A stretch of 64,000 nucleotides of DNA from a virus. Each line of letters opens with the position of its first letter. Positions within the stretch are counted from its first letter, which is position 1. This document shows positions 22,442-59,798 of the stretch, piece after piece. The stretch lies in the IMG/VR virus record IMGVR_UViG_3300032073_000011, positions 38,193 to 102,192 of that record, one strand, 5' to 3'. The position numbers and the translations under genes were made by a program. Below the pieces are notes generated by a model. That model ran no database searches and was not told where the DNA came from. It saw nothing but the letters and a program-made list of their open reading frames with translations.

Positions 22442-24218
22442 CAGTGTATTCGGTTAATATAGTTATTGTTGCTGAGGTTAGTGGGATTAATGCTGGCCCC
22501 ACCGCCTCTATTTTAAATTCTAAATTATGGTAAGGGTAGTGAGCATCATTTAAATAGGGGTAACTAACACCATTATCCCCATCTTCATAAGCTTCTACCG
22601 GTAAAATTTCTCTCCACCTAAATGTTTCCTCTGATAAAGAATAAACAGCATACTGGGGTGATGTAAACAGACTATCATTATAACTTACATAATTAGAGAA
22701 TTTTTTTACAGGTATCTTGTGGTGTGGATGGTATTTAAAGATAGAATCTACAAAATCATATCCTGGTGTACCACCAACTTTATACATCGCATCTCTATTA
22801 AATTTTAAGGAATGTCCTATTTCTGAAATTACTCTTTCTTTTAACTCAAAAGGGTTATATTCAGCAAAAGCACCTCTAAGTGTACTTCCACTTAATGGTA
22901 ATGGATTTACCCCTAAATTACCGTTTTGAGTTACATTTATGGGGTGAATTGTGTTATCCACAAAAGGGTCTACCACCCCATTTTTTTTAAAGTTCCACCC
23001 CCAACCATATCCAGCTGGACTAGAATTACCACCAGGATTCCAATCCCAAACTAAATTTCTATTTGTAGTAAAAATTGTTAAATAAAATTCTGTTAAAGGC
23101 CTATTAAATTGGTCGTAATAATCATCACTATTAATATTATAATTACAATTCCATAAAAATGAATCGTATTCTTGGATTAAAACCGACTTTTGTTTATAGT
23201 TTGGTGTTCTTTTTGCTGGAAATATTCTTCCTCTTTTATTGTATATCCCTCTTTCAAAACCTGTTTTATCTAAAGTTAAATCATTAGGGTTTGTTATTAA
23301 TTTATGTATTTGACAATAGTATTCAGATTTTGTCTCTAGCATATTTTCTGGGTTAGTGACTCTTTTTAAAGTACCTACTGGTTCTGTTGGTATTGAGGTA
23401 GCGTCTAACCCTAATGTGGTAATATTCATAACATAATCTTCAGAATTTTCTAATCCATTACCCAAATAATCTACTTTAAATATAGTTTGAGGCCCACTTA
23501 CCGGTGCAAATACAGTAGTAATTGCTACATCAACTAGTAGATTAGCGTTACCAAAAGTAGTTGCCCCAGATTGTATTTCTATATATTCTCCTGGTGATAC
23601 ACCATGTCTTACCGGTGTTATTATTTGTAACACTTCTTTACCATCAGTATTGGTCACTCTGGGGGTAAAAGGGATACCATCTCCAGCTACAAACTGCATA
23701 CCAGAAGGTGTGGTGTAGTCTGTATAGTATTCCATTGTTTGTTCTGGGTCTGCATCATGTACATAAGAAATATATCGCACCCAATTATCTTGGTGTGCTA
23801 ATATTGGTTCCCAACCTGCTTGACTAGGGTCAATACCATATCTTTTAGGTGGTATCATGGTAAAAGTACTAGATGGTGGTAAACCGGAACAACTAGTAGG
23901 TGGTACTCCACCTAAAAGATGGGGGCACCCTATATAATCTGGAATAAAATACATTGAGTCCATAAAATAAGCATCTTGTGTGCTACCACTAATAATATTG
24001 TTGTAAAGTATATCTATTTTCCCATATAACCTATATTGGGTTGAGTATTCTCTTTCAAAGTCAAATTGGTCTCTTAGGTCTAAAACTAGGTTTCTGTCAC
24101 CTTCATGTATTTGTTTTTGTGTGGATTCTAAAAACGGTTGTAATTGCAATTCTCTGTTAGGTGAACCAGCAAATTTAGATTCTCCTCTTACAATCCTTAT
24201 GTTTTTTTCGTTACTCAT
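22428..24218 (-). CDS. Hypothetical virion structural protein (596 aa)
   Basis: Translationally coupled (TAATG overlap) in the baseplate operon. Confidence 0.6.
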   Translation of the reverse strand: MSNEKNIRIVRGESKFAGSPNRELQLQPFLESTQKQIHEGDRNLVLDLRDQFDFEREYSTQYRLYGKIDILYNNIISGSTQDAYFMDSMYFIPDYIGCPHLLGGVPPTSCSGLPPSSTFTMIPPKRYGIDPSQAGWEPILAHQDNWVRYISYVHDADPEQTMEYYTDYTTPSGMQFVAGDGIPFTPRVTNTDGKEVLQIITPVRHGVSPGEYIEIQSGATTFGNANLLVDVAITTVFAPVSGPQTIFKVDYLGNGLENSEDYVMNITTLGLDATSIPTEPVGTLKRVTNPENMLETKSEYYCQIHKLITNPNDLTLDKTGFERGIYNKRGRIFPAKRTPNYKQKSVLIQEYDSFLWNCNYNINSDDYYDQFNRPLTEFYLTIFTTNRNLVWDWNPGGNSSPAGYGWGWNFKKNGVVDPFVDNTIHPINVTQNGNLGVNPLPLSGSTLRGAFAEYNPFELKERVISEIGHSLKFNRDAMYKVGGTPGYDFVDSIFKYHPHHKIPVKKFSNYVSYNDSLFTSPQYAVYSLSEETFRWREILPVEAYEDGDNGVSYPYLNDAHYPYHNLEFKIEAVGPALIPLTSATITILTEYTDGCQ

Positions 24219-27200
24219 TATATTACTGTATCTGATAATTCTTCATCTATATATTTCCTAACAAAAGTATTGAATGCTGTACCTCCAGGTCTTAAACCAA
24301 AATAATAAAATAATGGTTGTGAAAACACATAAGAATCACTACCTGGAATTGTACCATTAGTTACTGGGTAGTTGTTATTCGCAAATGAAAATGGTGGATT
24401 ACCCATATAGTGTTGGAAATTACCACTACTTAGATATTGTGTACCCCCGGAAAGACCTGGTACGGCATTTGTGGGGTGTATTGTTGAACCTTCTGCATCA
24501 ACAGAAGAAATTGCTGGTAAAATTGACATTGCTGGTCCAGGTACACCGAACGCATATCTATATTCTCCTAGAGTACCTAACCAGTCATTCCAAACAGTAC
24601 CGTACCCACCAATTGGGACACCCCCAAGTGTACCACTCGCATTATGTAAATGCCATGGATAAAATGGTACAGTCTGACTAGATGCTGACAACTCCATAGT
24701 GACACAATCTATTAAATCCTGACCATCCATAATAACTGATGTAGAACCTGTAAATAATAATGGTTCCCACAAAAGATTATGTCTAAAGTTATTTGAATTA
24801 TTTATATCGTTTACATTAAGAGCATTGGGTACGTAAGTTCCTCCCACAAAATTTGGTGATGGGTAAGTTAGTCCACTTGGTGGTAGTGAGTCTGTTGGTG
24901 ATGTGGAAAATCCTGGACCGTTACCAACTGGGAATTGACACTCACAAGCTGTATTACCATTATTTGCCTCATATCCTGCAACACCTAACATACAATTTTG
25001 CATAAGTGCTTGTGCTACATCACCACCAATTTCATATTCAGGACGAGGAAAGAACGTAGACATAGATGCCTTTGGATTTTGCATCTTAAGATTATAGGTA
25101 TCAGAAACTAGTTCTGTTATGTCTTGGAATGTTGTACTACCTATCTGGTCAGTCACAGAACATTCGTTAGCGTATTTAGGGTCTAAACATATTTGTTGTA
25201 TACATTGGTTTCTAGACCCCATATCTACCATTGTTGTTGGAAAAAGAATATGTCTGTCTTGGTCACCCTTAGCGTGGTTACTACCACTACTACCCGCAAA
25301 AGCCCACCAAGGATTATATACACCATCAGTATCACCAATAAAACTTCCTTCTAGTGGTTGGATACCGTTAACTTTAAATGGTGTGGACCTATAGTAAAAA
25401 GTATGTTCTGTTGGGTGTAGGTAGGTTAATTTTTTACACCACTGGGAATTGGTGACGTAGGTATCATTGGCGGTATCATATTCTACCTTAGCTCTAAATT
25501 GGAATTGGTATAAGAATCCACTTACCCAACTATTTTCCCAAAAATAATTCATAATACCATTACATAATGCCTGTGATACTTTTTCTCTTCTGGTCCATTC
25601 TAATAAAACTCTAAGATTATAGTTCTCAGCGACACAGTCTATATTAAAACATATTATTTTTACATAACAACCACCACCTGCTATACCATCCGTCGGGTCA
25701 TTACTTGTACTTGGGTCACCCGAAAAAGAAGAATTAAAACCATAATAGTCTGGGCAACATATTCTTGTCTCATCTGTTTGTGCACAACAATCATGTGACC
25801 ACTTGCCACCAAAATCATCACCTACAGCACCATTACCTGGTGGACATTGTGGTACACAAGTGGAACTTGCAGAGTATGTGGTACCCCCACTCATCCCCCA
25901 AGGTAGACCTCCTGGACATGGCCATTTAGAAGCTAAATATATAAGAGAGTCTGACTTACTCATATCCCCCATAGTTCTACACATACATTTTTCACATTCT
26001 GGATACTTGGTTTGTCTTAAAGTAAATAATACGAACCCCATTCTTAACCCAAAATATTTACAGTCAGCACCACAACCAAAACAATCAGAACCCCCGAGAC
26101 AAATTTGACCACATTCTTCTGGTGGGGGGGACATAAAACTAGACATTCTTAATATTGTAAAACCCCATAGTGTTATATGGATACAGTATATCGCACACCA
26201 CATCCAACATATTAACCACACGACAAACAATACAACTGCTAGTACTAAACTAAGAAGTGCGGCTATTGTAGTAACGAGTAATGTTAAAAACATGTAAATC
26301 ATCCCTAAGAAATCTATAAGGAACATCCAAAGAAATACCATTAAACTAGGAGCTCTTACAGCACTATTAATTGGAAAAAACATTGCAGTGGTCGCACATT
26401 GTTGGTCTGATTCTGGTAATATATTTTTTATCCCCACAAATTGTCTTCTACCACCATGTTTTATGTGGTCATGAAATTGTGAGAATGTGTACACCCTATT
26501 AAATGTCATATCATAAAAAACATCTTTTGCTCCAGGCATTAAATTTCTTTGTGCCCAAGGATTGTAGTCACTATAATTTACAGAAAAAGTATAAGTACTA
26601 GGGTCTATCCCTGGCCAATCACCATTACTATCACCAGCCCAAGGGTCATAAAATTCTCTAATATTAGGCACCAAATAACTAGCTATCCTTCTCTCTCTAG
26701 CTCCTCCAGTTGCCTGTTCTGGTCTAATCCTAAACCTACATCTTGTTCTAGTTGGTACGCCCACACTTGGGTCGTCAGATATAACCATTTCTCCAAATTC
26801 ATTGGTAATCATATAATCTAGATTCATCGGAATATGTACTAGAAAGGAACCGGAATCATCAATAACCCTACCTCCATTTGGTAGGTAGTATCTTTCTAGT
26901 ATGGGTACTTCTCCACCTAGTGGTGCCCCCCAACCTCCAGCGGTATATGCTGGGTAAGCATTTGGGTCATTTTGAAAAAATGGGGTATATCTTATACAGT
27001 CTATTATTCCTGGTCTTGAGATTAAACTACATAGTTCTCCCATAGCTGCTTTAGGTCTACAATTTCTATTAACAGAATCTTTATCGGTGTCAGATGCTGT
27101 ACTACCCATAAAAACAGCATTGGGTTCTAATTTAAACCCGGTAACACCTAAATCAAAATCTACTCTAGTAATTGCAGCTCTACAAAATTCTTCATCACCC

Positions 27201-27883
27201 CAAAAAGGTCTAACATCTATAGATTTTTGTTGACTTAGTATTTGTGGTAGACTATCTATAATAATGTCGTCTTTGAATTTTGCCCCATCAAAGTCAGAGT
27301 CTGGAAATCCTTTTATTTTAAAATCTTCTGGTAGAAGTGAGAAACATCCTATGTCACTCACATCAACATCCATTATAATACTTTGGTCTCCGACTGGAAC
27401 ACCATATATCATAAAGTCACCCGACTCATTAGTTTTTACAGTAAACTTATAGTACTTGTCATATACGTATTTAACATCTTGTTTATTTAAAACATCATTT
27501 AGTGTTGGGAAACTACCGACAGTAACATGACAATCGAAATTTGGTTCACTACTGAGTAGATTATATCTTTTACCTTCTTCGGTTACATCAAAAGGTTCTT
27601 TAAATGGGTAAAGTTGTTTTATTACTTGGTTTTCTGCGTCTTCATCAGTTAAAGGAATAAAAATAGAAACTTTGGCATTTGGTATGCCGAATCCTCCATT
27701 TGTTATGACTCTACCGATTACCACACCAAAATCAGCACACATACGTGTGTAAACTTCTTGTTGTGTTAGTGAAAGACTTAGGATTTCTAGTAAGTCAAAG
27801 TTTTGGTTTAGTTCAAAAGTTACATTCTTGTCTTTTGCACCACCAACTCTAACGTCTGTCCTTACTCTAAATGATTTACCCAT
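24218..27883 (-). CDS. Baseplate-associated protein (1221 aa) with carboxypeptidase-regulatory-like beta-sandwich, long hydrophobic segment and Cys-rich region
   Basis: GVVIGRVITNGGFGIPNAKVSIF...TNESGDFMIYGVPVG motif; about 65 aa hydrophobic stretch; directly follows the gp6-like gene. Confidence 0.65.
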   Translation of the reverse strand: MGKSFRVRTDVRVGGAKDKNVTFELNQNFDLLEILSLSLTQQEVYTRMCADFGVVIGRVITNGGFGIPNAKVSIFIPLTDEDAENQVIKQLYPFKEPFDVTEEGKRYNLLSSEPNFDCHVTVGSFPTLNDVLNKQDVKYVYDKYYKFTVKTNESGDFMIYGVPVGDQSIIMDVDVSDIGCFSLLPEDFKIKGFPDSDFDGAKFKDDIIIDSLPQILSQQKSIDVRPFWGDEEFCRAAITRVDFDLGVTGFKLEPNAVFMGSTASDTDKDSVNRNCRPKAAMGELCSLISRPGIIDCIRYTPFFQNDPNAYPAYTAGGWGAPLGGEVPILERYYLPNGGRVIDDSGSFLVHIPMNLDYMITNEFGEMVISDDPSVGVPTRTRCRFRIRPEQATGGARERRIASYLVPNIREFYDPWAGDSNGDWPGIDPSTYTFSVNYSDYNPWAQRNLMPGAKDVFYDMTFNRVYTFSQFHDHIKHGGRRQFVGIKNILPESDQQCATTAMFFPINSAVRAPSLMVFLWMFLIDFLGMIYMFLTLLVTTIAALLSLVLAVVLFVVWLICWMWCAIYCIHITLWGFTILRMSSFMSPPPEECGQICLGGSDCFGCGADCKYFGLRMGFVLFTLRQTKYPECEKCMCRTMGDMSKSDSLIYLASKWPCPGGLPWGMSGGTTYSASSTCVPQCPPGNGAVGDDFGGKWSHDCCAQTDETRICCPDYYGFNSSFSGDPSTSNDPTDGIAGGGCYVKIICFNIDCVAENYNLRVLLEWTRREKVSQALCNGIMNYFWENSWVSGFLYQFQFRAKVEYDTANDTYVTNSQWCKKLTYLHPTEHTFYYRSTPFKVNGIQPLEGSFIGDTDGVYNPWWAFAGSSGSNHAKGDQDRHILFPTTMVDMGSRNQCIQQICLDPKYANECSVTDQIGSTTFQDITELVSDTYNLKMQNPKASMSTFFPRPEYEIGGDVAQALMQNCMLGVAGYEANNGNTACECQFPVGNGPGFSTSPTDSLPPSGLTYPSPNFVGGTYVPNALNVNDINNSNNFRHNLLWEPLLFTGSTSVIMDGQDLIDCVTMELSASSQTVPFYPWHLHNASGTLGGVPIGGYGTVWNDWLGTLGEYRYAFGVPGPAMSILPAISSVDAEGSTIHPTNAVPGLSGGTQYLSSGNFQHYMGNPPFSFANNNYPVTNGTIPGSDSYVFSQPLFYYFGLRPGGTAFNTFVRKYIDEELSDTVI

Positions 27884-30635: not shown

Positions 30636-32540
30636 TTAACTTAACTCAACTTCTTTTTCTTTATCAATAGATTTCATATCAACATCTATTTCACATTGTC
30701 CACCAGCACAAGCTAACTCACCAGTTAAATTAGTATTGTCATCCAATTCAACAACTTTACTTAAATCAACATCTTTTAAAGATTTCATCATTTCATTATA
30801 TTGTTCTTCTGTAATGTCTTCAAATGGTGCCTGAGTATAAGTACCTCCATTGTATGGTAATACAGATAAACCATTATAAGATTTTCTATTTTCCCACATC
30901 CATTCTCCAGCTAAATCCCAATCACTCTCTTTTAACGATATTGTTGCCGATACATTATGTGAGTTTGAGCCGTTTCTATGTCCTGATTTTACCCATTCTG
31001 TAGCCACTTTTTTAACTCTCTCTAATAAATCAAAAGGTGATTCTGTTCTGAGTATAGAACCTTTTGGAGCTTTTTGTGGTATACTAATAACAGCGGTATC
31101 GTGTGGTCTGAAATATTCGTCTTCAACAAGTTCAGGGTGGTTAATATTTAAATAAGTATATATTGCTTCATTCTTACCAACCCTAACTCTTCTAATATAA
31201 TAGTCGTTATGCCATGCATGAATTCCTGATGATGTTCCTAAAGTTAAAGATGTTGTTCCTGCCGGTTTAACTGTTGTACATCTTGCTGATGGGTTGATGT
31301 CTATTAATTTAGCTACCCTAGTATTTTCTCTTTTAACTAGACTTGCAGCTTTTTTCATGTCGTATTTTAGTACTTTTCCAGAACCTATACCTGTCATTGA
31401 TACACCAATTAAAGCATCTTTTTCAGTAGTTTCTTGCCAAACTTCTCTTAAGTAATGAAACGAAGTGTACCCTGCTTGAAGTGTGCCAATAAATGCTGCT
31501 GCTTTTACTCTCTCATTTAAGTCTTCTTGAGACTCTATATTTGATACGTTTACCTCACAAAGATTACAGAATTGATTTGGTCTTAGTGCTATTTCACAAC
31601 AAGGATTAGTCCCCCAATCTTTGTCATTATTTAAGTATATACCCGGTTCCCCTGCTCCTGATAATTCAACTCTTTTCCATAAATCCATAAAAAACTCTTT
31701 TGTTATTTTATGTCTCATTAAACAAGCTGAATTATTAGCTCTACCTCTTTGTGGGTTTAATTCCCACCAGTTACCAGCTTTACACCCAATCATAGCATCG
31801 TCATCAGCACTAAACAAACTAATAAGAGCTGCTCTACGTATTCCACCTGCCAATACCGCGTCTGCAATATGACATACAATATCGTGTACTTCAATAGTTG
31901 TAAGTTGTTCTCCATTTTCTTTTTGATTTAATAAACCTTCAATTTTCACTAAACATTCTTTTAGTGGTTGAGGTCCTGGTGCTTTACCACCTGATGTTAT
32001 TAATCTAGCTCCTTTTGGTCTAATATCAGAATAATCAAATTCTACTCTACTACCACCACCATTCATATATGTTTTCATAAGAACTTTAATTGCGTCTGCC
32101 CATCCTTCAATACTATCACCAATTAAAAATCTTTTCTTTCTTTTTGGGTATGGTTGTTGGATTACGGGTAATTTTTTTACATGGTGTTTTTGTACCGAAT
32201 ATCCAACACCTGTACCTCCCAGTAATAAAAACATTGTCTCACTAAAAGAGTCAATATGGTCAATAGGTACATAAGCACAGTTATAGATTCTATTAGGACT
32301 AATCTCAATAGGTTTACCACCAAATTGCATACTTCTCATTGAGGGTAAAACTTTTTTATCATAAACAAATTTGTATTTTTGTTCTATTTCTTCTTTTAAA
32401 TGCGGATATTTTTTTATGTGCATTTTTTTATTTCGGGTAACTAATTCATCCCATGTTTCTCTTCTATTTAGTTCCGGTATATACTTAGCGTACTTCATGT
32501 AGACAGTAATATCCGACAGAATCTTATTTGATACTTCCAT
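30636..32540 (-). CDS. nrdJ: Class II adenosylcobalamin-dependent ribonucleotide reductase (monomeric RTPR type)
   Basis: LPSMR, NCAY, GGTGVG, GIRRAA, TNPCCEI, TVKPAGT motifs and C-terminal CAGGQC redox pair; no beta subunit nearby. Confidence 0.9.
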   Translation of the reverse strand: MEVSNKILSDITVYMKYAKYIPELNRRETWDELVTRNKKMHIKKYPHLKEEIEQKYKFVYDKKVLPSMRSMQFGGKPIEISPNRIYNCAYVPIDHIDSFSETMFLLLGGTGVGYSVQKHHVKKLPVIQQPYPKRKKRFLIGDSIEGWADAIKVLMKTYMNGGGSRVEFDYSDIRPKGARLITSGGKAPGPQPLKECLVKIEGLLNQKENGEQLTTIEVHDIVCHIADAVLAGGIRRAALISLFSADDDAMIGCKAGNWWELNPQRGRANNSACLMRHKITKEFFMDLWKRVELSGAGEPGIYLNNDKDWGTNPCCEIALRPNQFCNLCEVNVSNIESQEDLNERVKAAAFIGTLQAGYTSFHYLREVWQETTEKDALIGVSMTGIGSGKVLKYDMKKAASLVKRENTRVAKLIDINPSARCTTVKPAGTTSLTLGTSSGIHAWHNDYYIRRVRVGKNEAIYTYLNINHPELVEDEYFRPHDTAVISIPQKAPKGSILRTESPFDLLERVKKVATEWVKSGHRNGSNSHNVSATISLKESDWDLAGEWMWENRKSYNGLSVLPYNGGTYTQAPFEDITEEQYNEMMKSLKDVDLSKVVELDDNTNLTGELACAGGQCEIDVDMKSIDKEKEVELS

Positions 32541-38886: not shown

Positions 38887-41800
38887 TTATTGTCGTGTTC
38901 TAGGTAAAAATTCTGCAGGGTTTAAATAATGTTCTACTATTTTACCTTCTTGTTTAACACCTCTTTTTATTTCAAAATGTAGGTGTGTACTTTTAGATAA
39001 TCCACTATTACCCATTTTACCAATTACTTTATTTCCAGAACCAACACCTATAAACCCTCTTTCTATTGGGTCGTTTACGTTTACAGTTATACCTTCCCTC
39101 AAAAAAGCGTATCGTGTTAGATAGTAAGCTGTCCCTTCTTCTGGTGGGTCATTATTTAGTATAGTTTTAACCTCAACATGATTACCGTATTTAGCACAAG
39201 ATTCACTTTCTTGTAATGGTTTACAACCATCAACAACTTTAGTTACTACACCATAAACAGCCGGATAAATTTCAATACCACCATTTTCATCATTTGCAAA
39301 ATCTATATTATCTGAAGTAGGACATATATCCACACCTAAATGTCGTTTTTCTGGGTCCTCATTTGGTGTTACTATAAATGTTCCCGCACTTAAGGTAACA
39401 TCAACCCACCTTACATTATCAGTGTCTAATGGTGGTGTTTGGTATGTTACACCAGTAGCTATGTAATTATTTTGTTTAGGGTTTAATTTTTTCTGACTTT
39501 CAGTAGCACTTAATCCATCATAATATAAATCTATAGGTATCTTTTCTAATCTGTCTTCGGCTTTTTCATATAATTTAACATTAACTCTTTGTACTAGGTC
39601 ACTTATAGCTGGTAAAGTTGGTTTTGGTACTCTAACTCCTTCAAATGTTGTTTCTATTGTATTTGGTCTAATTTCGTGTTCAACATTAATAATTAAATAA
39701 GGCCCATTAAACATTGGTAAGTATCTTAGTTGGAAATATTGTGTTGGTTGTATCGTTACGTTACCCACACATGTAACCCTTGCTGTATAGGACCTACTAG
39801 CGTATACATTAAATAAAGAAACCGATGCTGGTGATGTAGAATTTCCACCCCCTGAATCTGCCATACTTTGTAGTATCTTAAAACTCTCTGAGGTATTTTG
39901 AAATTGTGATTGGTCTAGTGTTATTGATTCAAAAATGTTTTGGTTGGGTATACCAAAGTCTACGTTGAACCCCATCACCTTATTTGACTGTTCTTTATTG
40001 CCACATTCTTGTGTTACCAATGGGGAGTTTGGTGAGTTATAATTAAATGAATCATTATTATAACCATTATTAGGTGTTTTAGCGTTTAGTTGTGATGATG
40101 GTTTACCTACGTATTGACATAGGAAAGCCGGTGCTGAATCTATATAATCTACAGTTTTAAATGTACCGAACATTGCATTTCCTTGAGCTTGTGTGTCGGT
40201 ACCTTTTTTTTCCACATTAAAGAAATTTATATAAGAAGGTAGTGGTATAAAATTAAAGTAATTGTTAGCTAATATAATACTTAAGTAACTTGAGACACTC
40301 TGTGTTAATGTTTTAGAGTTAGTGTCGGTAAACGGAGAGTCTAGTTTGAGTATGTCCCATATGTTAATTATTGCTTCGTCACCAATGTCTTGGTTTGCCC
40401 TATCTAAAAATAAAAATTTCTCAAATAACGTTTGGTCTGTAAGGTTAGTCCCAGAAACCCACCTATCATTTATTATTTTAAACTGATTATATAACTCTAA
40501 TTTTAGGTCATCAGACTTAACTTCTGGTCTATCATCTGTAACCACATCTAATGTGGTATCATCAGTTTCTAAATTTTGTTTTATATTTTTTTGTAGTTCG
40601 GTTAATAAAGTTTCAGCGTATAGTTCTTCCGAAGTCTTTAGTGAGTCTATACGAGCCATAAAAGTATCTAAAAATGTACTCGCTGGAGTGGTTCCATTTA
40701 AACTAACATGACTAGCGTATAGTTTAATAAAGGGAGCAAATGATATTATATTATTTGTATTAAATTGCATACCATCTGGAGTGATTTTATTAATACTTTG
40801 GAAAAAATTATACATTGGATTTGAGTCATCAGCATCAATTAACATGCCAAATTGATTTGAACTGTCTGGATAAAACTCCCCAACTTCAAGTCTCATTGTT
40901 TGATGTTCTGGGTTACCTGCAGGAAAAAATCCACCAGCTAGTGGTATCGCTTGTCCACTAGGATAACTACCGTATAGTTCAGTTAAATTATTAAATACCT
41001 CATCTTTGTTATTATTAATATCACGAAGTTGTGTTAGTCTTTGTAATAAAGTTTCATTATTTATAACCAAATCTAAATTAGTAGTACTTCTATGGATATA
41101 TTCTACTTTTTTACTTAAAAACTGAGACATGGAATGGTTAAACTTTAAAAATTGTGCTTCTGCGAGTGATTTAGAGTTAGTCCCCCCACCGGCATTAAGA
41201 CCACCAACAGTAGTTAACCAAGTATCTTCTACCACAACTAATTGTTTAATTAACCCTTTAAGGGAACCACCCAAACTAGTAGAACCTCCTGGTGTGGAAA
41301 AAACTAAAAATTCTCGTTCAAATTCATCTAGTTGTTCTTTATTAAACACACCTCTGAGTACTTCTATACTATCATAGAGTCCTGGATTACTAAAACTCCA
41401 AGATTCTTGTTCATTTTGTTCTGGATTAATTTTTTTAAAGTAGTCTCCAGGTCCAGATTTATACGCTGCTTGGTGTTCGAAATAACCGTAGTGTGAAGCA
41501 CCCCATAATAATCTACATGCTCCATTATGTAACGCAGCGTTACCGTAGGTTGGTGTTTCGTAAGTTGAAGCGTCGGTACCGTCAAGTCCTCCAGAAGAAG
41601 GAAAAAGTATGGTATACTCCGAGGTCTGTGGTGAGTTAGGGGTACTCACACCAAAAACGGGGTCAGCAATATTAGTGGACCGTAAATAAACATTATAAAA
41701 TCTTACATCTACACCATCAAATGAGGTGTAGTTAATATCACTATTAGGTTCTATAGTTAATGGAGCATTTCCCGCAGTGTCTATAAGGTTATTCAATTGT

Positions 41801-44800
41801 TGTCCTGGACCAATATTACTATAACTATCGTTATCACTAGCTATGAATTGGACTGTATCAACTAATGCTGGGTAAACCCCCACTCTCATAGTAGTATTGT
41901 TAACGTTACTTTCTTGACTTACATAGGGGTAGGTGTTTCCATTTTGTAAAAATGTATAGTGATTTAGAGTATTTAAAGCTGTTTCATAAACACTACTTGG
42001 ACCTGTATACCCTAAATAACTAACAAATCCCAAATTACCCCAAATAGAACTTAATGGGTCTACTTGTGTTTGTACTTCTGTTTTGTATCTCCACCAAACT
42101 GAACCAATTCTTAATATTAAAGCTACTGGTAAATTATGAATAGCAGGCATCTGATTAAACATCTGTGATATATAATTACCAAATTTATCATTATCACCAT
42201 CCTTATATAATGCTTTTTCTCTTAGTGTCGGTAGTGGTAATGAATTTAAAAATAAATAAGCAGCTTGTGTATATGGATTTGGGGTTCCTACTTTATCTCT
42301 TTCCACACCACCAATTAATGCGTTTATAAAATAAGGTGTGTTTAACATAGACGTTAACCTTACAGCAGCCATTTCTATATTGGTACCTCCCGTAGGGGGT
42401 ATTGTAGATACTGTTGGGAATCGATGTATTTCACCTTCTGTTATAAATTTATGTTGTATGTAATTTTCATATGTTTCATCTACCGTACCTATGGTGTTAA
42501 GGTTGTACGCTCCAAGTCGTCTATACAACATTTTTTCTGAGTCTTCTTCTATAAAATTTGTCCTACTGTATTTTGCTCTTGTTAAGTACATCGTACTCCA
42601 AGTGTCGGTTAAAACATTTTTTTCATTTATGTCATACTGTACGTTTTTACTTATATTAAAAAAATCATTACTACTAATTGTGTTTCCATTAGCAAAGTTT
42701 CTTCTTACCCAATTACCAAAAATACAAGGAGCTAAGTCATAAGCACTATTACTCTTTCCCTCTAATAATATCTCAGTATTCAATTCAAAATCTTGACTTC
42801 TAACTGAAAATAAAGATTTATTATAATTTAATGTAAAGGTTGGTTTTACTTCATATGGTGTGATAATACCGTACTGTTGATATAGGACAAACCTAAAAGG
42901 GTCAGCATCCTTTAAAATTGTTAACATTTGGGTTAACCCCCCTAAATCTAAAAATACTTGTTTTTGTGTACTATAATTTTTAATTCTTTGGTATAGGTTT
43001 AAAGCGTCGTATTTTGCTAATTCTCTGAGAGCTGGATTAATAAAACTAGATGTACTTAACACACCTGTTTGTCCCACATATCTAGAAAATAAACCACCAT
43101 TTAAAACCGCTCTTTGAGTTCTATCTAATATCTCAAACCATATATCCAAATCTTCTATACTAAAATAAGGGGTAGATGTAGGTGGCCAATCATATACTGT
43201 TATTGGGGTCCAGTCTTTATCTACAGCCTTATTATCAACTGTTGGGTTAAATAAGCTAAACTTATAGTTGGTGGCTTTAGTGTATTCTTCTACGAACTCG
43301 ACCTCGGGCCATATTTTTGGGTTATTAGCTAAAGTATTAGCTATAACATCTGAAGCACCTGGATAAGTTAAAACAGAATTTGTTGTGGTACAGTTACCAC
43401 CTTTTTGTTGTTCCTCAATTTTATAATATTGAGGCCATGGATACACTATTTGGTTAGTTGCGTTGGAGTCATCGGATGAAACTGCTGCTGCCAATCTTTG
43501 TTCGTTTTGTCTCTGAGCAAATGCATCTGTATGTACATCATCTAATAATTTTAAAAAGGTGTCAGCACCAGCTAATATTATCGCAAAAACATTTCTTATC
43601 GTTGGTTTAAACCCTATGGCTTTTTGTAACCTACCGTTAAGTTTTTTACTCAGGTCTTCTGCCATACTTTTTGCCTTACTATCAAACATTCTTTTAGTTT
43701 TTGTCCATATATAAACAAAACTATCCACATCTCCCTCAAACATAAACCAAGGTGCTTGCCCTGCTGGTAGTTGTGTTGTTATACCACCTATCTGGACACT
43801 TCCTTTAATTTGTGAATTTTCAAATATGTCGTAGGTTGGGTCACTGAACCTAGTGGCTACGGAATATTTACCACCTTCCACAGTACTTCTTGCTTTAAAG
43901 GTTGGGTTTTGTTGTAGTATTTTAAAATATTTTTTGACTATCGATTCTAAAGCGTTTTTAGCTTCATTAATTATCTTATCTTGGTTTTCTTTTCTTTTAG
44001 TAGCGTCTGTTTCTGCTGTAGCTGCTGACATACCTTTTAAAGGATATGCCTGAGTAATTACAGTTCTTCCTGTATTTGGTGTTGTTGGGATTTGTTCTCC
44101 TGGTTGTGGTGGGAATGGCGGTTCATTTACAGTAACGTTTCTTCTACCAGCTGGAGAGGTGTCCAAATATTTTCCAACCCACCCTTTCTTACCAATTATA
44201 GCACTTTTAAATTTTTCTAAAGTTTTTTCATACTCTAGTTTATGGGTAGTACTTTCTAAACTAGCTTCACCAAATACTTGAGCCATATCATTATCTATAG
44301 ATTGTATTTTTTCTATTAACTCTACAGTGGTATATTGGTTATTGAATAAGTTGTCACTAATTAAGCCTTTAGTGTAGTACTCTCTATAAACTTCCCCAAG
44401 TACTTGTCTTCCTTTAGTCATTTGAATATTTCCACTTTGTGGGTCTTGTCTTGTAGGGTATAGGTAAGGTGCTGTGACCGCTTCATGCATGTTTATATCC
44501 CTTAACATTGCTATATGATTACCTTTAAAATCACATGTGACTAAGTAATCACCAGATGCTGGGTCAAAACGAGATATAAATTTTTCTAGGGTTAGTTGGT
44601 ATTGGACTGCCTTCCCGTAATATCCTTTAAGTGTTAGAAAAAAGGTTGGGTATGGTAGGTGAAAAAAAGCAGTGTAGGGTGTGTTGACCTTAGCTTGTTC
44701 AAATAATGTTTTCCCCCTAACATCTGTGAAGTTTATAGTTACTTGGGGTATGTAGGATGCGTTAACTTTAATACTAATAGAGGTTATACCAAATCCCTGA

Positions 44801-45180
44801 AAATCATTTTGGTTATTTATACTAGTAGATGTTGTAACACCATCTTTTGTTTTAGTTTTTATTTTTTTATTAACATCTGGATTAGTGAAGGCCTCTGTCC
44901 AATCTGAATCAAATGAACTTTTGCCTTTTGGTTTTAAAAAATTTAGTTCACCATCTGCTATTTCTACCCTAATTTCATCTCCTGCAGCCGCACCAACTAA
45001 TAACTTACTTCTAGGAAATATTTTCGCTGTAAGGTTAGCGTACATCACAAAATCCTCTTGATTAACCAACCTATCTTTTATAACACCATCTGCCCCCACC
45101 ACTTTATTAGGGTCTATTGACACTACGTTACCCCCTATTTGGGTGGTTAGTATATTACCGGAATTTAAATTATCTGCCAT
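38887..45180 (-). CDS. Baseplate hub / tail-associated protein with C-terminal M23 peptidase-like domain (2097 aa)
   Basis: Hub-like FGITSISIK...VTINFTDVRG and YTARVTCVGNVTIQPTQYF...GPYLIINVEHEI segments; C-terminal HLGVD, YGNHV, IGKMGNSG and HLHFE. Confidence 0.75.
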   Translation of the reverse strand: MADNLNSGNILTTQIGGNVVSIDPNKVVGADGVIKDRLVNQEDFVMYANLTAKIFPRSKLLVGAAAGDEIRVEIADGELNFLKPKGKSSFDSDWTEAFTNPDVNKKIKTKTKDGVTTSTSINNQNDFQGFGITSISIKVNASYIPQVTINFTDVRGKTLFEQAKVNTPYTAFFHLPYPTFFLTLKGYYGKAVQYQLTLEKFISRFDPASGDYLVTCDFKGNHIAMLRDINMHEAVTAPYLYPTRQDPQSGNIQMTKGRQVLGEVYREYYTKGLISDNLFNNQYTTVELIEKIQSIDNDMAQVFGEASLESTTHKLEYEKTLEKFKSAIIGKKGWVGKYLDTSPAGRRNVTVNEPPFPPQPGEQIPTTPNTGRTVITQAYPLKGMSAATAETDATKRKENQDKIINEAKNALESIVKKYFKILQQNPTFKARSTVEGGKYSVATRFSDPTYDIFENSQIKGSVQIGGITTQLPAGQAPWFMFEGDVDSFVYIWTKTKRMFDSKAKSMAEDLSKKLNGRLQKAIGFKPTIRNVFAIILAGADTFLKLLDDVHTDAFAQRQNEQRLAAAVSSDDSNATNQIVYPWPQYYKIEEQQKGGNCTTTNSVLTYPGASDVIANTLANNPKIWPEVEFVEEYTKATNYKFSLFNPTVDNKAVDKDWTPITVYDWPPTSTPYFSIEDLDIWFEILDRTQRAVLNGGLFSRYVGQTGVLSTSSFINPALRELAKYDALNLYQRIKNYSTQKQVFLDLGGLTQMLTILKDADPFRFVLYQQYGIITPYEVKPTFTLNYNKSLFSVRSQDFELNTEILLEGKSNSAYDLAPCIFGNWVRRNFANGNTISSNDFFNISKNVQYDINEKNVLTDTWSTMYLTRAKYSRTNFIEEDSEKMLYRRLGAYNLNTIGTVDETYENYIQHKFITEGEIHRFPTVSTIPPTGGTNIEMAAVRLTSMLNTPYFINALIGGVERDKVGTPNPYTQAAYLFLNSLPLPTLREKALYKDGDNDKFGNYISQMFNQMPAIHNLPVALILRIGSVWWRYKTEVQTQVDPLSSIWGNLGFVSYLGYTGPSSVYETALNTLNHYTFLQNGNTYPYVSQESNVNNTTMRVGVYPALVDTVQFIASDNDSYSNIGPGQQLNNLIDTAGNAPLTIEPNSDINYTSFDGVDVRFYNVYLRSTNIADPVFGVSTPNSPQTSEYTILFPSSGGLDGTDASTYETPTYGNAALHNGACRLLWGASHYGYFEHQAAYKSGPGDYFKKINPEQNEQESWSFSNPGLYDSIEVLRGVFNKEQLDEFEREFLVFSTPGGSTSLGGSLKGLIKQLVVVEDTWLTTVGGLNAGGGTNSKSLAEAQFLKFNHSMSQFLSKKVEYIHRSTTNLDLVINNETLLQRLTQLRDINNNKDEVFNNLTELYGSYPSGQAIPLAGGFFPAGNPEHQTMRLEVGEFYPDSSNQFGMLIDADDSNPMYNFFQSINKITPDGMQFNTNNIISFAPFIKLYASHVSLNGTTPASTFLDTFMARIDSLKTSEELYAETLLTELQKNIKQNLETDDTTLDVVTDDRPEVKSDDLKLELYNQFKIINDRWVSGTNLTDQTLFEKFLFLDRANQDIGDEAIINIWDILKLDSPFTDTNSKTLTQSVSSYLSIILANNYFNFIPLPSYINFFNVEKKGTDTQAQGNAMFGTFKTVDYIDSAPAFLCQYVGKPSSQLNAKTPNNGYNNDSFNYNSPNSPLVTQECGNKEQSNKVMGFNVDFGIPNQNIFESITLDQSQFQNTSESFKILQSMADSGGGNSTSPASVSLFNVYASRSYTARVTCVGNVTIQPTQYFQLRYLPMFNGPYLIINVEHEIRPNTIETTFEGVRVPKPTLPAISDLVQRVNVKLYEKAEDRLEKIPIDLYYDGLSATESQKKLNPKQNNYIATGVTYQTPPLDTDNVRWVDVTLSAGTFIVTPNEDPEKRHLGVDICPTSDNIDFANDENGGIEIYPAVYGVVTKVVDGCKPLQESESCAKYGNHVEVKTILNNDPPEEGTAYYLTRYAFLREGITVNVNDPIERGFIGVGSGNKVIGKMGNSGLSKSTHLHFEIKRGVKQEGKIVEHYLNPAEFLPRTRQ

Positions 45181-45492: not shown

Positions 45493-46593
45493 TTAACTAA
45501 TATATAGTTGGTTTAGTAATTTGTAATTAAACTTACTATCACTAATACCTACATTTTTATCTCTTAGATTAACTCTAACTATATTTTCTGCTGTTGCTCC
45601 CGTATTAATCTTATAACCAACATTAAAATCAGAATAATATCTATTTATAACACCTTTAAATGTTTCATAACCACCATCTAAATTACTCGTAAATCTAGAA
45701 ACCATTAAACTTGTATCGTAATCTATCCATTCTTTTACCGCGTTATTTAATTGTGGTTTAAATACTCGTATTGTGACTGGTGTGACACCAGTAATACCTA
45801 GTGGGTCAATATTGGTTAAATCATCATACAGTGTACTTTTTCTATAATTAAGTAACTTTTGTAATTCTGGTCTATTATCAAATGTAAAAGAAGTAGCTTC
45901 ATTTGTGTATATTACCGGACTAAAGAAAATATATTCACCACCACCAGGATAATTTTTAGTAAACGCAGAATTAACATGGTTAACTATAAAAGTATTTAAA
46001 TACCCATTAGTTATGTTGTAGTTAGTCATTACTCTGCTTAAAGCAGTAGTAGCTGTTAATTGGAATGCTATTACTCTACCTCCATTTGGGTTTAGGTATT
46101 GTCCGTCAAAATAACCATCATGGCCATTTGGGTTTGTAATAAAATTAAGTTTATCCGCTGTGGTAGTTAATTTATGTTGTGAATCTCTAAGATTATTAAC
46201 TAAAGTCATAACTTGTGTTATTGTATTATTTAGTTGCGTTTCTAATGTATTGTATAAAACATTTTTTACATATTGTTTTTCGGGCTCTGTTGGGTTAGAT
46301 ATGTTTAACTTGGTTTGGATTGTTGTTGTTTCCGCACTTATGTTATTTTTAACGGTTTCGTAATAAGTGGTTATTCTACTTATTATTTTATTGGGTATCC
46401 CCATTAAAGTACCATTTGTATTTGTACCTAAAGTTCCTGTTTTATAATTTCTGGAAAACATAGATTCTTCAACAAGACCCATACTGTGGTATAGGAAAAC
46501 GTCGTCTAACCTATTCTTTACGTCCAAAGAATATGCATTACTTTCGTCAACGAAAGCATTTAAAAGATTTTTATAATTTATTGTGTAATCCAT
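45493..46593 (-). CDS. Hypothetical tail/baseplate protein (366 aa)
   Basis: Packed between the tube-initiator-like and LysM genes. Confidence 0.6.
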   Translation of the reverse strand: MDYTINYKNLLNAFVDESNAYSLDVKNRLDDVFLYHSMGLVEESMFSRNYKTGTLGTNTNGTLMGIPNKIISRITTYYETVKNNISAETTTIQTKLNISNPTEPEKQYVKNVLYNTLETQLNNTITQVMTLVNNLRDSQHKLTTTADKLNFITNPNGHDGYFDGQYLNPNGGRVIAFQLTATTALSRVMTNYNITNGYLNTFIVNHVNSAFTKNYPGGGEYIFFSPVIYTNEATSFTFDNRPELQKLLNYRKSTLYDDLTNIDPLGITGVTPVTIRVFKPQLNNAVKEWIDYDTSLMVSRFTSNLDGGYETFKGVINRYYSDFNVGYKINTGATAENIVRVNLRDKNVGISDSKFNYKLLNQLYIS

Positions 46594-56348: not shown

Positions 56349-59300
56349 TTATATATCTTCAAAAGATGCCCCTGTAGGAGTTATTAAGAACTCAACAAAG
56401 ATATATTCTAAAGCTCTGGTAGGTTTAATGTAAATCTTACCATTCATTTCATTTCTATCTATTTCTTCAGGGTCATTAGAAAGTACCACTCTAAAGTCTG
56501 TCAAACCTCTATCTCTTCTTATAGAGTCTAGAATTGGGTTAACTAAGTCTAAGAATTGTTGTCTTACAATATCGTCATTTTGTTCGAATATTAATCTTAC
56601 CGAAACAGCCGAAATTAATTTTCTAGTTTGTAGTAACAATCTTCTAACATTAATTCTATCTAAAGCAGATTCTCTAATCTGTAAAGTTTTATTACCCCAG
56701 ATAATTGGACCTACATCACTGAATGTCGCGATAGGGTTAAGTCTACCTACATATAATGTATCTCTTTCATCTAAAGTCAGTTTCTTTCTCGCTTTAACAG
56801 CGTCCACTAAACCTCTCGTATATCCTGCCGAAGCGAACCATGGGAATGAAATATTATCAGTTAATGCTATATTTCTCATTACCTCTGCTGTTGGTGGGAT
56901 GTAAATTTGTTTATTATTAGCGGTATCTCTTACCTGTATCCAAGGATAATAGGTAGCTGTATAGTTAGAATCAATTAATGAATCTTCTAAATTGTCTACA
57001 GCTTCTTCTGGTGAAACTTGGTTTGTTTTATCTGTTGTGTCTGCTACAAACATATTATAGTCTGGTGTTGTTACCACATATAAAGAGTCAGCTCTTTGTG
57101 TTTCTACCATATCTATAGCTTCATTTACTAAACCTAAGTTATCTACATAATCTAAACCTGGTGTTGTAAACACATTAATATCTACTGATTCTGGGTTATT
57201 GAATGTTTCTATACCTCTTAAGAATGCAAAATAGTCAGTGTTTGCTTCGATGGTACTTAACTTCTTAAATGTACCTAATCCTGTACCTAGTGGGAAATCA
57301 CTACTTGTACAAGCTCCCGCTAAGAAACCACTTAATCCCATTCTATAGTCATCACTATTAGACCTAGTTTTTCTGTAAATGTCCCAACCGTCGAAACCAC
57401 CATGAGGTGCAACTGTAAACTTACGACTTCTAAGTTTTTTATATGTTTCGGTAGATAGTGTAGGTTCGTGGTTAAATTGTCCTGCTCCACAATCAAATAC
57501 TTGTTTATTGTTTAAGGTAGTACCTGTCCAATCTGTATACGCTCCAGTACCTCCTATAACCACAGTAGCTCCAGAATCCATGTGGAATCCTTTAGTTATT
57601 ACATTCCACTCACCACCATCTGCTGGTGTACATAATGTGGACGGTACTTGTTTTCCTTTATAGTTGAAGAAGTCTGGGTCATAAGCTGCACCTGTACTAT
57701 TAGATACACCTAGATAAACTTTACTAACTTTATCACCACCACTAACAGTTTGGTTATTTACCGTACCACTACCGAAAGGTGGGTCAAAAACTGTTTCACC
57801 TGGTGTGTAATATTTTGTTTTATAAACTAATTTAGGGTTTGTAGGACATGTTCCATAACCTCTAAACCTATATCCCTCAAATCCTGCTGGTACTGAATTA
57901 GCAAATGTCCCATCTAATAAACCTTCACCTAAATATAACATAGTATACTTAGATTTTAATTCAAACTCACCTGTAGATGTACCTATTTTTCTACCAACAA
58001 ATGAAACTTTAGTAGGGTCTAAACTACATCTAGTATATTTTTCTAAGACGTTTGGATTTGCATCAGTATCATAGAAATCTCTTACCAAGATATCAAATTC
58101 ACCTCTCTCAAATGACATATTAATTAATGAAATTTTAATTTCTCTGTTTGCTGTTGTACCATCAGATATAGAAATAAATTTAAATAATCTATATACGTCA
58201 GTACCTTGTAATTCTGAAACAATCCATGGTGTTTCAGGTGTTGTCCATTGATGCATGTACCAAGCTATAGTATTTGTGTTTGTTGTATTTCTTGCGGAAG
58301 GTAAGTACTGTAAACAACACTGTAACCCTCTTACTTTTCCTTTTTTCCAAGCATCTGTTAACAAAGCTGGATAAGTTTCTTCTACAAATAAAGGAACCTC
58401 CTCTTTCTTTTTATCAAAAGGACTTCTACCAAATACTCTAGAAACGTAGTCTTGTGAAGTATTACTCATAGAAGTTTTAAATGTGTAAGCTGTACCATTA
58501 ACAGTTCCAGCACTTATACCAAACGAAGCGAATGGATTTTCCATAACTTTATAATAATCTCCAGTACACTGCATATTAACAGTATTCGCACTAATAGAAT
58601 AAACCGGTCCACCCGAAGCCTTATCACTTAATCCTCTAGACCTTAAAGTTAATACTACCATACCATCATATTCAGTCTCAGCTGATAAATTTGTATAAGT
58701 AACGTAGTCCATTACTACATTACCAGAATAAACTACTGTACCAGCACTTGTTGTTCCTGTTGCTGCCGAATAATAACCAGCATATCCTACAGGAGTTCCA
58801 GCTGCAGAGAAAGATATATCTGATGGATTACCACTAATATATAGTTGGTACGAAACCCCACTATACGTAGAACCTGTACAACATGTTGTACTATTGTCGT
58901 TATCAAATAAAGCGTAATACCAAGAATCGTTTTTATATGAAGTCCAGTCAGTACACTCACTTCCTAATATATTAGTTACTGTTAAAGCTGAAGTTGCAGC
59001 TGTTAATGTATCTACTGTATCAGCAGTAGCAGCATTAGTTGTTGCACTAGGTATACAACCATATTGGTAGACTGTTGGACAAGGCCAAGCAGTCGCTGCT
59101 GAAGCTGGGGTTTGTGAACCACCAGTATAACATAAAGTATTAGATGATGTTTTAAGACTTAGAGTCGCAGAAAAGAAATCAAGGAATGATTGTTTTAACG
59201 TTGGTAGTGTAGTTCCGTTCGTTAATGTTACTACTTCACCCAAATCAGTGTCTGTGTCGGATTTTCTAAAGTGATTTAATACCACACCTGGAATTTGTGT

Positions 59301-59798
59301 AAAGAAGTCAGCATTTAAGGCATCATTTATACTTGCACTTTCACCCACAGTAGTATTAGTACCAGTTAGTGGGATGAAGAAAGGCATTATTGTTTGGGTA
59401 ATAGCAGATACAACGCTACTACCAGAATCAGCCCTAAAACTCTTAGGGTCTAATTCCCCCAAAGTTAATACACTAAATGATGGTCCCGCATCATAACCAC
59501 TAAGACCTAATACTCTAGTCACAAATAATTGATTTGATTGACTTAAGTAAGACTTAGCTATATATCCTAACTCATATTTAGGAATCTGTGAATCCACGTA
59601 TGTTGTTGGTGATGTACCACCAAATCTTGTTGTGAAGTCATCATATGATTGTATAAAAATAGGTTCAAAAGCTGGTCCCTTTAGAGTTTCACCAACCACA
59701 CCTAATGTTGTAACACCTACACTTTGTGCTACAAATGTTAAATCTTTCTCAGAAGTATATACCCCTGGAGAAACAAATACCTTATTACCGTCTGCCAT
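56349..59798 (-). CDS. Tail sheath protein, enlarged (1149 aa)
   Basis: FVSPGVYTSEKD, GETLKGPAFEP, YYPW, PWFASAGYTRG, NPIATF...IWGNKTLQ...LDRINVRRLL, IKPTRALEYIFVEF. Confidence 0.95.
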   Translation of the reverse strand: MADGNKVFVSPGVYTSEKDLTFVAQSVGVTTLGVVGETLKGPAFEPIFIQSYDDFTTRFGGTSPTTYVDSQIPKYELGYIAKSYLSQSNQLFVTRVLGLSGYDAGPSFSVLTLGELDPKSFRADSGSSVVSAITQTIMPFFIPLTGTNTTVGESASINDALNADFFTQIPGVVLNHFRKSDTDTDLGEVVTLTNGTTLPTLKQSFLDFFSATLSLKTSSNTLCYTGGSQTPASAATAWPCPTVYQYGCIPSATTNAATADTVDTLTAATSALTVTNILGSECTDWTSYKNDSWYYALFDNDNSTTCCTGSTYSGVSYQLYISGNPSDISFSAAGTPVGYAGYYSAATGTTSAGTVVYSGNVVMDYVTYTNLSAETEYDGMVVLTLRSRGLSDKASGGPVYSISANTVNMQCTGDYYKVMENPFASFGISAGTVNGTAYTFKTSMSNTSQDYVSRVFGRSPFDKKKEEVPLFVEETYPALLTDAWKKGKVRGLQCCLQYLPSARNTTNTNTIAWYMHQWTTPETPWIVSELQGTDVYRLFKFISISDGTTANREIKISLINMSFERGEFDILVRDFYDTDANPNVLEKYTRCSLDPTKVSFVGRKIGTSTGEFELKSKYTMLYLGEGLLDGTFANSVPAGFEGYRFRGYGTCPTNPKLVYKTKYYTPGETVFDPPFGSGTVNNQTVSGGDKVSKVYLGVSNSTGAAYDPDFFNYKGKQVPSTLCTPADGGEWNVITKGFHMDSGATVVIGGTGAYTDWTGTTLNNKQVFDCGAGQFNHEPTLSTETYKKLRSRKFTVAPHGGFDGWDIYRKTRSNSDDYRMGLSGFLAGACTSSDFPLGTGLGTFKKLSTIEANTDYFAFLRGIETFNNPESVDINVFTTPGLDYVDNLGLVNEAIDMVETQRADSLYVVTTPDYNMFVADTTDKTNQVSPEEAVDNLEDSLIDSNYTATYYPWIQVRDTANNKQIYIPPTAEVMRNIALTDNISFPWFASAGYTRGLVDAVKARKKLTLDERDTLYVGRLNPIATFSDVGPIIWGNKTLQIRESALDRINVRRLLLQTRKLISAVSVRLIFEQNDDIVRQQFLDLVNPILDSIRRDRGLTDFRVVLSNDPEEIDRNEMNGKIYIKPTRALEYIFVEFLITPTGASFEDI

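Follow-up and report, generated by a model that had tools for sequence, protein, structure and literature searches.

Known systems of virus-encoded virion glycosylation

Giant algal viruses and a few mycobacteriophages are established cases in which virions are glycosylated by virus-encoded enzymes. We know of no sequence address for virion glycosylation in phages and, for the abundant uncultured jumbo phages of marine Bacteroidota, of nothing on the subject at all. Here we analyse a short motif, [ST]-[GA]-x-[ST], that recurs in the tail sheath and the tail-fibre-like proteins encoded by a 64-kb stretch of viral DNA (the window), which forms the right-hand part of a single 102,192-bp IMG/VR contig (IMGVR_UViG_3300032073_000011). 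In the outer tail proteins of this uncultured marine phage and its relatives, the form hydrophobic-[ST]-[GA]-x-T occurs approximately 2.5-4 times above chance. The contig is T4-like, encoding gp6-like and gp25-like baseplate wedge proteins, a tail tube, a baseplate hub and a gp18-type sheath together with a class II ribonucleotide reductase, a DnaB-like helicase and UvsX on the replication side. CheckV estimates its completeness at 32%, and the full genome is accordingly that of a jumbo phage of roughly 300 kb, whose host phylum is presumed to be Bacteroidota.

The general O-glycosylation system of Bacteroidota modifies exported proteins once they are in the periplasm, whereas the cytoplasm is where phage tails are assembled. 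The sequon of this presumed host phylum, D-[ST]-[AILVMT], likewise places a small or aliphatic residue after Ser/Thr, but differs from the motif described here in that D-[ST]-[AILMVT] is not enriched in these proteins and Asp is disfavoured immediately before the motif (position -1).

Mycobacteriophage virions, as Freeman et al. are said to have described in Cell Host Microbe in 2023, are O-glycosylated by phage-encoded glycosyltransferases (GTs). These glycans have been summarised as lying on the C-termini of capsid and tail-tube subunits (PMC12619734). The phage analysed here would be comparable in being a tailed phage with soluble GTs of its own, decorating its own structural Ser/Thr residues in the host cytoplasm, and phage-encoded GT genes are indeed present: a GT2 enzyme on the contig, three to six GT2 genes in each of five relatives and a core GT in all five. 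C-terminal acceptors on capsid or tube were not found; the tail tube has 0 sites against 0.3 expected and the major capsid protein of a collinear relative 4 against 2.6. Unlike in mycobacteriophages, capsid and tube are thus not enriched, and the candidate sites, defined by four residues, are internal and dispersed over the sheath insertion and the fibres. Hosts differ as well (Actinomycetota versus presumed Bacteroidota).

In chlorovirus PBCV-1, virus-encoded sugar-nucleotide enzymes and GTs glycosylate virion proteins outside the canonical sequon (PMC7019647). A glycan island in a relative of our phage, encoding GDP-mannose 4,6-dehydratase (Gmd), GTs and methyltransferases, resembles this toolkit; however, PBCV-1 is a eukaryotic virus with N-linked glycans on its major capsid and penton proteins, whereas the candidates here are Ser/Thr residues on bacteriophage tail proteins. 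The same island (115-137 kb in the relative), with its co-oriented GTs, Gmd, DegT and methyltransferases, also resembles the 'lipopolysaccharide/cell-wall modification' islands of large T4-like aquatic phages, for which the motif would offer a candidate acceptor, the link being correlative (five of five relatives versus none of four motif-negative phages).

Motif enrichment in the exterior tail proteins

Motif counts were compared with null models based on whole-protein residue shuffles and on local shuffles in windows of 10, 20, 40 or 80 amino acids (aa), and protein classes were fixed from gene order alone to avoid after-the-fact choice. The 14 open reading frames (ORFs) downstream of the baseplate wedge hold 126 sites against 51.1 expected (z = 11) and the sheath 21 against 8.2, as opposed to 29 against 33.1 in all remaining ORFs of the contig pooled. 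A preliminary description of this DNA had proposed that the motif is enriched in outer virion proteins, and the comparison of exterior tail proteins with the other ORFs, against composition-preserving shuffles, bears this out for the tail. Per-protein z values stay at 3-6 under local 10-aa shuffles. Counts at expectation were obtained for the tail tube, the hub, the gp6/gp25-like proteins, a tape-measure-like protein of 2097 aa and the replication enzymes. The motif-rich features of the window, with observed and expected sites, are listed below.

56349-59798, minus strand: tail sheath, 1149 aa, with a T4 gp18-type core and a large insertion; 21 sites against ~8
58479-59471, minus strand: sheath insertion, residues 110-440; 17 sites against 4.5 (z 6.3)
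1-182 (genome 35966-38374), minus strand: motif-rich protein of 802 aa, its N-terminal end in the window; 11 against 4.9
225-3782, minus strand: tail-fibre-like protein of 1185 aa without family match; 23 against 7.5
3796-7719, minus strand: tail-fibre-like protein of 1307 aa; 13 against 4.5, all within residues 487-771
5290-6372, minus strand: part of the 1307-aa protein (residues 450-810) where the motif is densest, analysed with AlphaFold2, Foldseek and 18 homologs
7725-10916, minus strand: tail-fibre-like protein of 1063 aa; 12 against 4.6
12731-21487, minus strand: Cys-rich modular protein of 2918 aa; 35 against 12.3
45493-46593, minus strand: protein of 366 aa without PHROG or Pfam match; 6 against 1.0

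Significant enrichment was also found in a 405-aa protein encoded upstream of the window. The enriched proteins are rich in Ser/Thr (18-20%), and searches against PHROGs and Pfam returned no name for those of fibre type. For the sheath, about 20 motif tetrapeptides had been claimed, most of them in its long insertion; both statements hold, with 21 matches against 6.6-8.6 expected under global or 10-80-aa shuffles (z ~5), 17 of which lie within residues 125-436, while the sheath outside residues 110-440 is at expectation. Among the other tail proteins previously called dense in the motif, those of 1185, 1307, 1063 and 2918 aa are so, whereas a 1221-aa protein (6 against 3.3-3.5, p ~0.12) is not significantly enriched. 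NrdJ, cited as essentially lacking the motif, has indeed no site, which is uninformative on its own given ~1.2 expected; the pooled count of the non-tail ORFs is that given above.

The sheath is a T4-type contractile sheath (gp18) with conserved C-terminal sheath domains. Its family matches are confined to residues 853-1146, comprising PHROG 23 (residues 858-1146, E = 1.6e-53), PF17482 at 29.9 bits, above the cut-off, and PF04984 at 23.7 bits, below it (Phage_sheath_1/Phage_sheath_1C); the top Foldseek matches are the sheaths of Klebsiella phage KP1 and T4. The closest cultured kin, in a Microcystis phage and in Flavobacterium phages, share 30-36% identity over the core only, while marine metagenomes hold a large sheath family. 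No relatives of the fibre proteins were found among cultured phages.

Specificity of the motif

Within the enriched proteins, [ST][GA]x[ST] occurs 110 times against 41 expected (2.7x, z ~12), whereas each of 11 permuted orderings of the same residue classes reaches at most 1.4x. Any two of the three motif elements without the third stand at 0.87-0.93x, indicating that the three positions act cooperatively. In a blind scan of 48,000 gapped triplets (six layouts of 8000 residue triplets), S-A-x-T ranked first (32 against 4.5), T-G-x-T third and S-G-x-T fourth. The motif is distinct from the host-type sequon, as had been stated: D-[ST]-[AILMVT] is not enriched in the same proteins (23 against 29.2, 0.79x), and neither is N-x-[ST] (87 against 102, 0.85x). 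Literature searches found no published description of the motif on phage proteins.

A DNA-level origin was rejected: the codons used at motif positions, those of both Ser families among them, do not differ from background. A cryptic domain common to the enriched proteins was likewise rejected: BLASTP detected no similarity within or between them, and hhalign of the sheath-family profile against three fibre proteins gave probabilities below 1%, in agreement with the earlier view that the motif has accumulated on unrelated proteins. The distances between sites show a sole peak at 3 residues (12 against 2.8), which arises from the chaining of units, as in S-A-x-T-G-x-T. No excess was seen anywhere between 10 and 60 residues, and a beta-solenoid rung signature, such as that of ice-binding T-x-T arrays with a regular spacing of about 12-22 residues, was rejected on this basis.

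The motif-negative comparison phages include T4, Microcystis phage Mel-JY01 and Flavobacterium phage immuto, whose sets span 0.8-1.3x. No signal was present in T4 gp34 (3 against 7.8), gp37 (11 against 7.8), gp12, gp18 or Hoc, in the sheath and giant proteins of Mel-JY01 or in the pooled Ser/Thr-rich structural proteins of immuto (64 against 50.6); the motif is therefore not a general trait of Ser/Thr-rich phage fibres. One immuto protein, an annotated tail fiber (L108:32404-34176, vB_FspM_immuto_2-6A), is in moderate excess (15 against 7.3, z = 3.0).

Conservation and residue profile

Across 115 full-length sheath homologs, in which identity over the insertion falls to ~30%, all sequences keep an excess of the motif (1762 against 808 pooled). 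Some sites are fixed, namely that at reference residue 403 in 111 of the 115 homologs and that at residue 1142 in 108; those at residues 258, 266, 313 and 429 are present in 76, and many others are lineage-specific. Motif sites outlast control patterns of the same composition at every level of divergence, the fraction shared between homolog pairs being 0.80 against 0.60-0.67 at 80-95% identity, 0.56 against 0.36-0.45 at 65-80% and 0.33 against 0.17-0.27 at 50-65%. At conserved sheath sites, S and T as well as G and A interchange freely and x is variable, but position -1 remains hydrophobic. Since sites persist beyond controls while residues interchange within their classes, the degenerate motif itself is the unit of purifying selection.

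The dense fibre domain behaves similarly, with 141 sites against 32.5 in 18 homologs (4.3x) and 322 against 113 over their full lengths. It also recurs near the C-terminal end of metagenomic proteins of 2200-3000 aa, which are enriched 2.4-3.3x (~3x on average). In the collinear 210-kb relative (G001), the fibre block and sheath reproduce the enriched/unenriched pattern of their orthologs here, with 18 sites against 7.5 in the ortholog of the 1185-aa protein, 12 against 4.7 in that of the 1307-aa protein, 13 against 5.6 in that of the 1063-aa protein and 11 against 4.6 in that of the 802-aa protein. Exceptions are the ortholog of the 2918-aa protein (15 against 11.8, not significant), whose alignment spans only ~705 residues, and the likely 362-aa counterpart of the 366-aa protein (2 against 1.0, not enriched). 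Further enriched proteins occur in the same relative, for example one of 2948 aa (48 against 20.7).

Residue preferences were derived from two independent sets, the tail block and sheath of this genome, on the one hand, and G001 with distant giant homologs, on the other. In both, position 1 favours S (3.1-3.2x) and T (1.8-2.2x), while every other residue, N (1.0-1.4x) and D (0.8x) among them, stays near 1. Position 2 takes G and A at ~2.5x each and favours no other residue, position 3 disfavours P and K, and position 4 strongly favours T (3.5-3.7x) over S (1.4x), with V at 0.5-1.1x and I at 0.8-1.0x. Position -1 is enriched 4-7x in F, Y, C, L and I, while Asp there is disfavoured (0.7-1.0x against an average of ~2.7x); A/V/L are preferred at position +5 and T/S at position 6. 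The refined pattern is thus [F/Y/C/L/I]-[S>T]-[G/A]-x(not P/K)-[T>>S]-x-[T/S]. Turn motifs of the generic kind take Asx no less readily than Ser/Thr, and a preference for strands would also let in Val and Ile. Neither substitution rises above background here (N/D at position 1, V/I at position 4); the requirement is therefore for hydroxyl groups specifically, and a generic turn or strand motif is disfavoured.

Predicted structures

The sheath and the dense fibre domain were modelled with AlphaFold2, yielding models of medium quality. The sheath model, built from a 48-sequence alignment, is confident in the lineage-specific insertion, with a predicted local distance difference test score (pLDDT) of mostly 70-89 over residues 105-800. 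Confidence is low in the core, where the strongly conserved ends of the protein (103 residues at the N-terminus, 350 at the C-terminus) fall below 50. In known sheaths, the N- and C-terminal parts form an inter-subunit mesh, and the low scores probably stem from modelling a monomer. The 19 sites in the confident part of the model lie in mixed contexts. Approximately 40% are at a loop-to-strand junction, and position 4 is at most one residue from a strand start in 6 of the 19, compared with ~10% for all Ser/Thr; the others are found at helix N-termini, in helix or strand interiors, at strand ends and in coil.

In the fibre-domain model (pLDDT 60, predicted TM-score 0.65), loops of low confidence hold 7-8 of 13 sites, against a baseline of 37%, and another three sites coincide with strand starts. 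Its confident core is weakly TNF/C1q-like, a jelly-roll with long low-confidence loop insertions; Foldseek matched it to a TNF-like jelly-roll at E = 2e-3 and probability 1.0, with a TM-score of ~0.49 on the target and 0.21 on the query for this pLDDT-60 model. The folds of the two modelled regions differ, being an alpha/beta insertion in the sheath and a core with weak likeness to a TNF-like jelly-roll in the fibre, and the models place the motif across unrelated folds, mostly in or beside loops. The expectation that sites would map to loops is therefore borne out in part, most lying in loops or at loop-to-strand junctions but some within strands and helices.

Candidate modifying enzymes

A GT2 enzyme encoded on the contig (Glyco_transf_7C match) overlaps a DegT-family sugar aminotransferase and lies 6 kb from the first motif-rich gene. 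The pair belongs to an accessory block at genome positions 23924-26857 (L002:4924-7857), outside the window, which comprises an M23 peptidase on the plus strand, the GT2 and DegT. G001, collinear gene for gene with this genome (G000), precisely lacks the block, the flanking orthologs being ~36 bp apart there; in two other relatives the GT and DegT genes are adjacent (G003) or separated (G002). As G001 keeps the motif without the cassette, the nearby GT is not a lineage-wide reader, and the cassette, which has no sequence relative in the PDB and none in GenBank phages, was rejected for that role. The presence of GT2-family genes was also rejected as a discriminator, given that the motif-negative phages immuto and Mel-JY01 carry them. 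With its two GT2 genes, immuto may be the closest cultured handle.

A further candidate is located within the fibre block.

12097-12729, minus strand: nucleotidyltransferase-like (NTase-like) ORF of 210 aa, inside the fibre operon just downstream of the 2918-aa gene

Neither Pfam nor PHROG matched this ORF, and the protein atlas offered no more than a lead to NTP_transf_2 (score 0.95). As an accessory gene, occurring in one of five relatives (G003, 76% identity) and absent from the syntenic site of G001, it was rejected as the reader.

G001 encodes a glycan island of ~25 kb at 115.6-137.7 kb (L087:1594-19486, L088:2140-4708), soluble and co-oriented, which includes a Glyco_tranf_2_5 and Glyco_transf_4 fusion, two more GT2 enzymes, Gmd, DegT, four methyltransferases, an APH-type phosphotransferase and a fusion of HMGL-like and CMP-sugar cytidylyltransferase domains. 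The end of the island adjoins motif-rich proteins of 233 and 674 aa, and the contig of the window stops just short of the syntenic position. All five relatives encode the Glyco_tranf_2_5 GT (55-65% identity), whereas none of four motif-negative phages does; no homolog was found in GenBank phages. On this sequence evidence, the core Glyco_tranf_2_5-type GT of the island, beyond the contig end, is suggested as a better candidate reader. The preliminary description had called for a search for GTs in the rest of the genome, and the lineage does encode them, but the nearest GT2/DegT cassette is accessory and GT2 genes also occur in motif-negative phages. Its proposal of a recognition site for a modifying enzyme gains from a hydroxyl-specific profile of the kind expected for a tag that is read, although the GT closest to the fibre genes is not lineage-wide.

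Interpretation and alternative explanations

A motif that is enriched with sharp specificity in one protein class of one lineage and kept there by purifying selection, with a glycan island conserved in relatives, may be a tag or sequon read by some factor, for which a phage GT is the best single reading; we regard this as somewhat short of an even proposition. That phage tails of a marine Bacteroidota-infecting jumbo-phage clade undergo sequon-directed O-glycosylation, in what would be hundreds of uncultured phages, is a more tentative claim. We infer the attachment of a group, the acceptor residue and the identity of the enzyme. In such a system, selection would maintain a short linear tag on the outer insertion of the sheath, on fibre proteins and on baseplate-rim proteins; a trans-acting factor, most likely a soluble phage GT, would read it, and one hydroxyl residue of the motif would be O-glycosylated in the host cytoplasm before or during tail assembly. 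Hydrophobic-[S/T]-[G/A]-x-T would be the target of the soluble core GT on exterior tail proteins, whether already folded or still folding, and a complex, strain-variable glycan of amino, deoxy and methylated sugars would be built on sheath and fibres. The outcome would be a tail glycan coat, serving as a shield or adhesion layer with a four-residue address.

Several observations weigh against this glycosylation reading. The GT2/DegT cassette nearest the fibres is missing from the collinear relative although the motif is kept there, the association of the core GT with the motif (5/5 versus 0/4) is small and its relatives are not phylogenetically independent, and motif-negative phages also have GT2 genes. 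Modification of DNA or of the host surface is another role that the glycan island could have. The fixed sheath sites (403 and 1142) and the share of sites at loop-to-strand junctions (~40%) would also fit a structural role, and the buried hydrophobic residue at -1 with A/V/L at +5 suggests partial packing of the motif into the fold. Unlike the mycobacteriophage precedent, the G001 major capsid protein is not enriched (4 against 2.6), so that any coat would be confined to the tail and the whole-virion glycan coat envisaged earlier is not upheld, the feature being one of the tail exterior. In non-virion proteins the motif shows no significant depletion (0.72-0.88x), and no cultured member of the lineage was found among GenBank phages.

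The main rival, which we consider unlikely, is a lineage-specific structural or folding motif, a loop-to-strand 'starter' to which nothing is attached: Ser would cap, Gly/Ala would permit a tight turn or packing, Thr would open a strand with T-x-T on one face, and the phages would reuse this starter when building new exterior beta-domains. The proximity of position 4 to strand starts (6 of 19 sheath sites against ~10% of all Ser/Thr, and 3 of 13 fibre-domain sites), the alternating strand pattern formed by hydrophobic residues at -1 and +5 with T/S at +6, the fixed position of several sites across the sheath family and the nature of the dense regions, which are aromatic-rich folded domains rather than mucin-like linkers, are all consistent with it. 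However, the contexts of the sites are heterogeneous, spanning coil, strand interiors and ends and the N-termini and interiors of helices, so that no common local conformation emerges, and the motif is found in unrelated folds. Moreover, N/D fail at position 1 and V/I at position 4, and no signal appears in the beta-rich core tail proteins of the same phage or in T4, Mel-JY01 and immuto, whose fibre, sheath and Ig-like proteins are likewise beta-rich and rich in Ser/Thr. A composition, repeat or after-the-fact selection artefact would draw on the 18-20% Ser/Thr content of the enriched proteins, on the 2918-aa sites that lie in a repeated unit and on the fact that the first 'hot' set was picked after counting; it is effectively refuted by the z of 3-6 that survives 10-aa shuffling, the flat permuted patterns, the high ranks in the blind scan, the z of 11 for pre-set classes, the lack of internal or cross homology by BLASTP and replication in G001 and in two homolog families.

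It is improbable that the motif acts unmodified as a ligand- or water-binding surface, in which hydroxyl-small-x-hydroxyl arrays would bind polysaccharide, marine gels, ordered water or ice in the manner of Thr-rich ice-binding or carbohydrate-binding faces. Hydroxyl specificity, the preference for Thr, the T-x-T following the motif, the period-3 chaining (12 against 2.8) and the location on exterior proteins of a marine phage would suit such a surface, but there is no 18-22-residue rung periodicity and therefore no regular array, and sites are scattered over loops and junctions instead of forming one flat sheet. An ice-binding motif 'T-A/G-X-T/N' was not confirmed in the literature searched: ice-binding sites of DUF3494 have no consensus motif (PMC7966756), and PMC13413566 names only TXT-like motifs. 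We see a slim chance that the tag serves a different reader, either a Ser/Thr kinase or other non-glycan modifier or a tail-assembly chaperone that binds unfolded exterior proteins. A reader of this kind would predict an equally sharp, cooperative and class-restricted specificity, giant fibre proteins usually need chaperones, and the G001 island includes an APH-type phosphotransferase; yet APH-family enzymes of sugar clusters usually act on sugars, the NTase-like ORF embedded in the operon (12097-12729) is accessory (one of five relatives), and neither a protein kinase nor a dedicated chaperone was identified.

As a tag for glycosylation, the motif would constitute a concrete candidate acceptor for the large soluble glycan islands that these phages carry. 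It would then show which parts of the particle carry sugar, provide a portable tag for protein glyco-engineering and bear on host recognition, stickiness in marine gels and protease resistance. Even as a purely structural feature, it would be a design rule peculiar to the clade and not predicted from what is now known of folds.

Other proteins of the window

Three further proteins were considered.

24218-27883: protein of 1221 aa, not significantly enriched
30636-32540: NrdJ, 0 sites
38887-45180, minus strand: protein of 2097 aa; 8 sites against 6.1, not enriched

In the 2918-aa protein, some motif sites lie inside a repeated Cys-rich 'CC-x-TG-x-T...C' unit, and 'DCV' (11 against 1.5) and 'C-V-..-P' rank high among its over-represented triplets. 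The 2097-aa protein has a peptidase/endolysin-like C-terminal region (PHROG 3578 and 14988 on residues 1947-2093) and is probably a tape-measure or ejection protein with a lytic domain.

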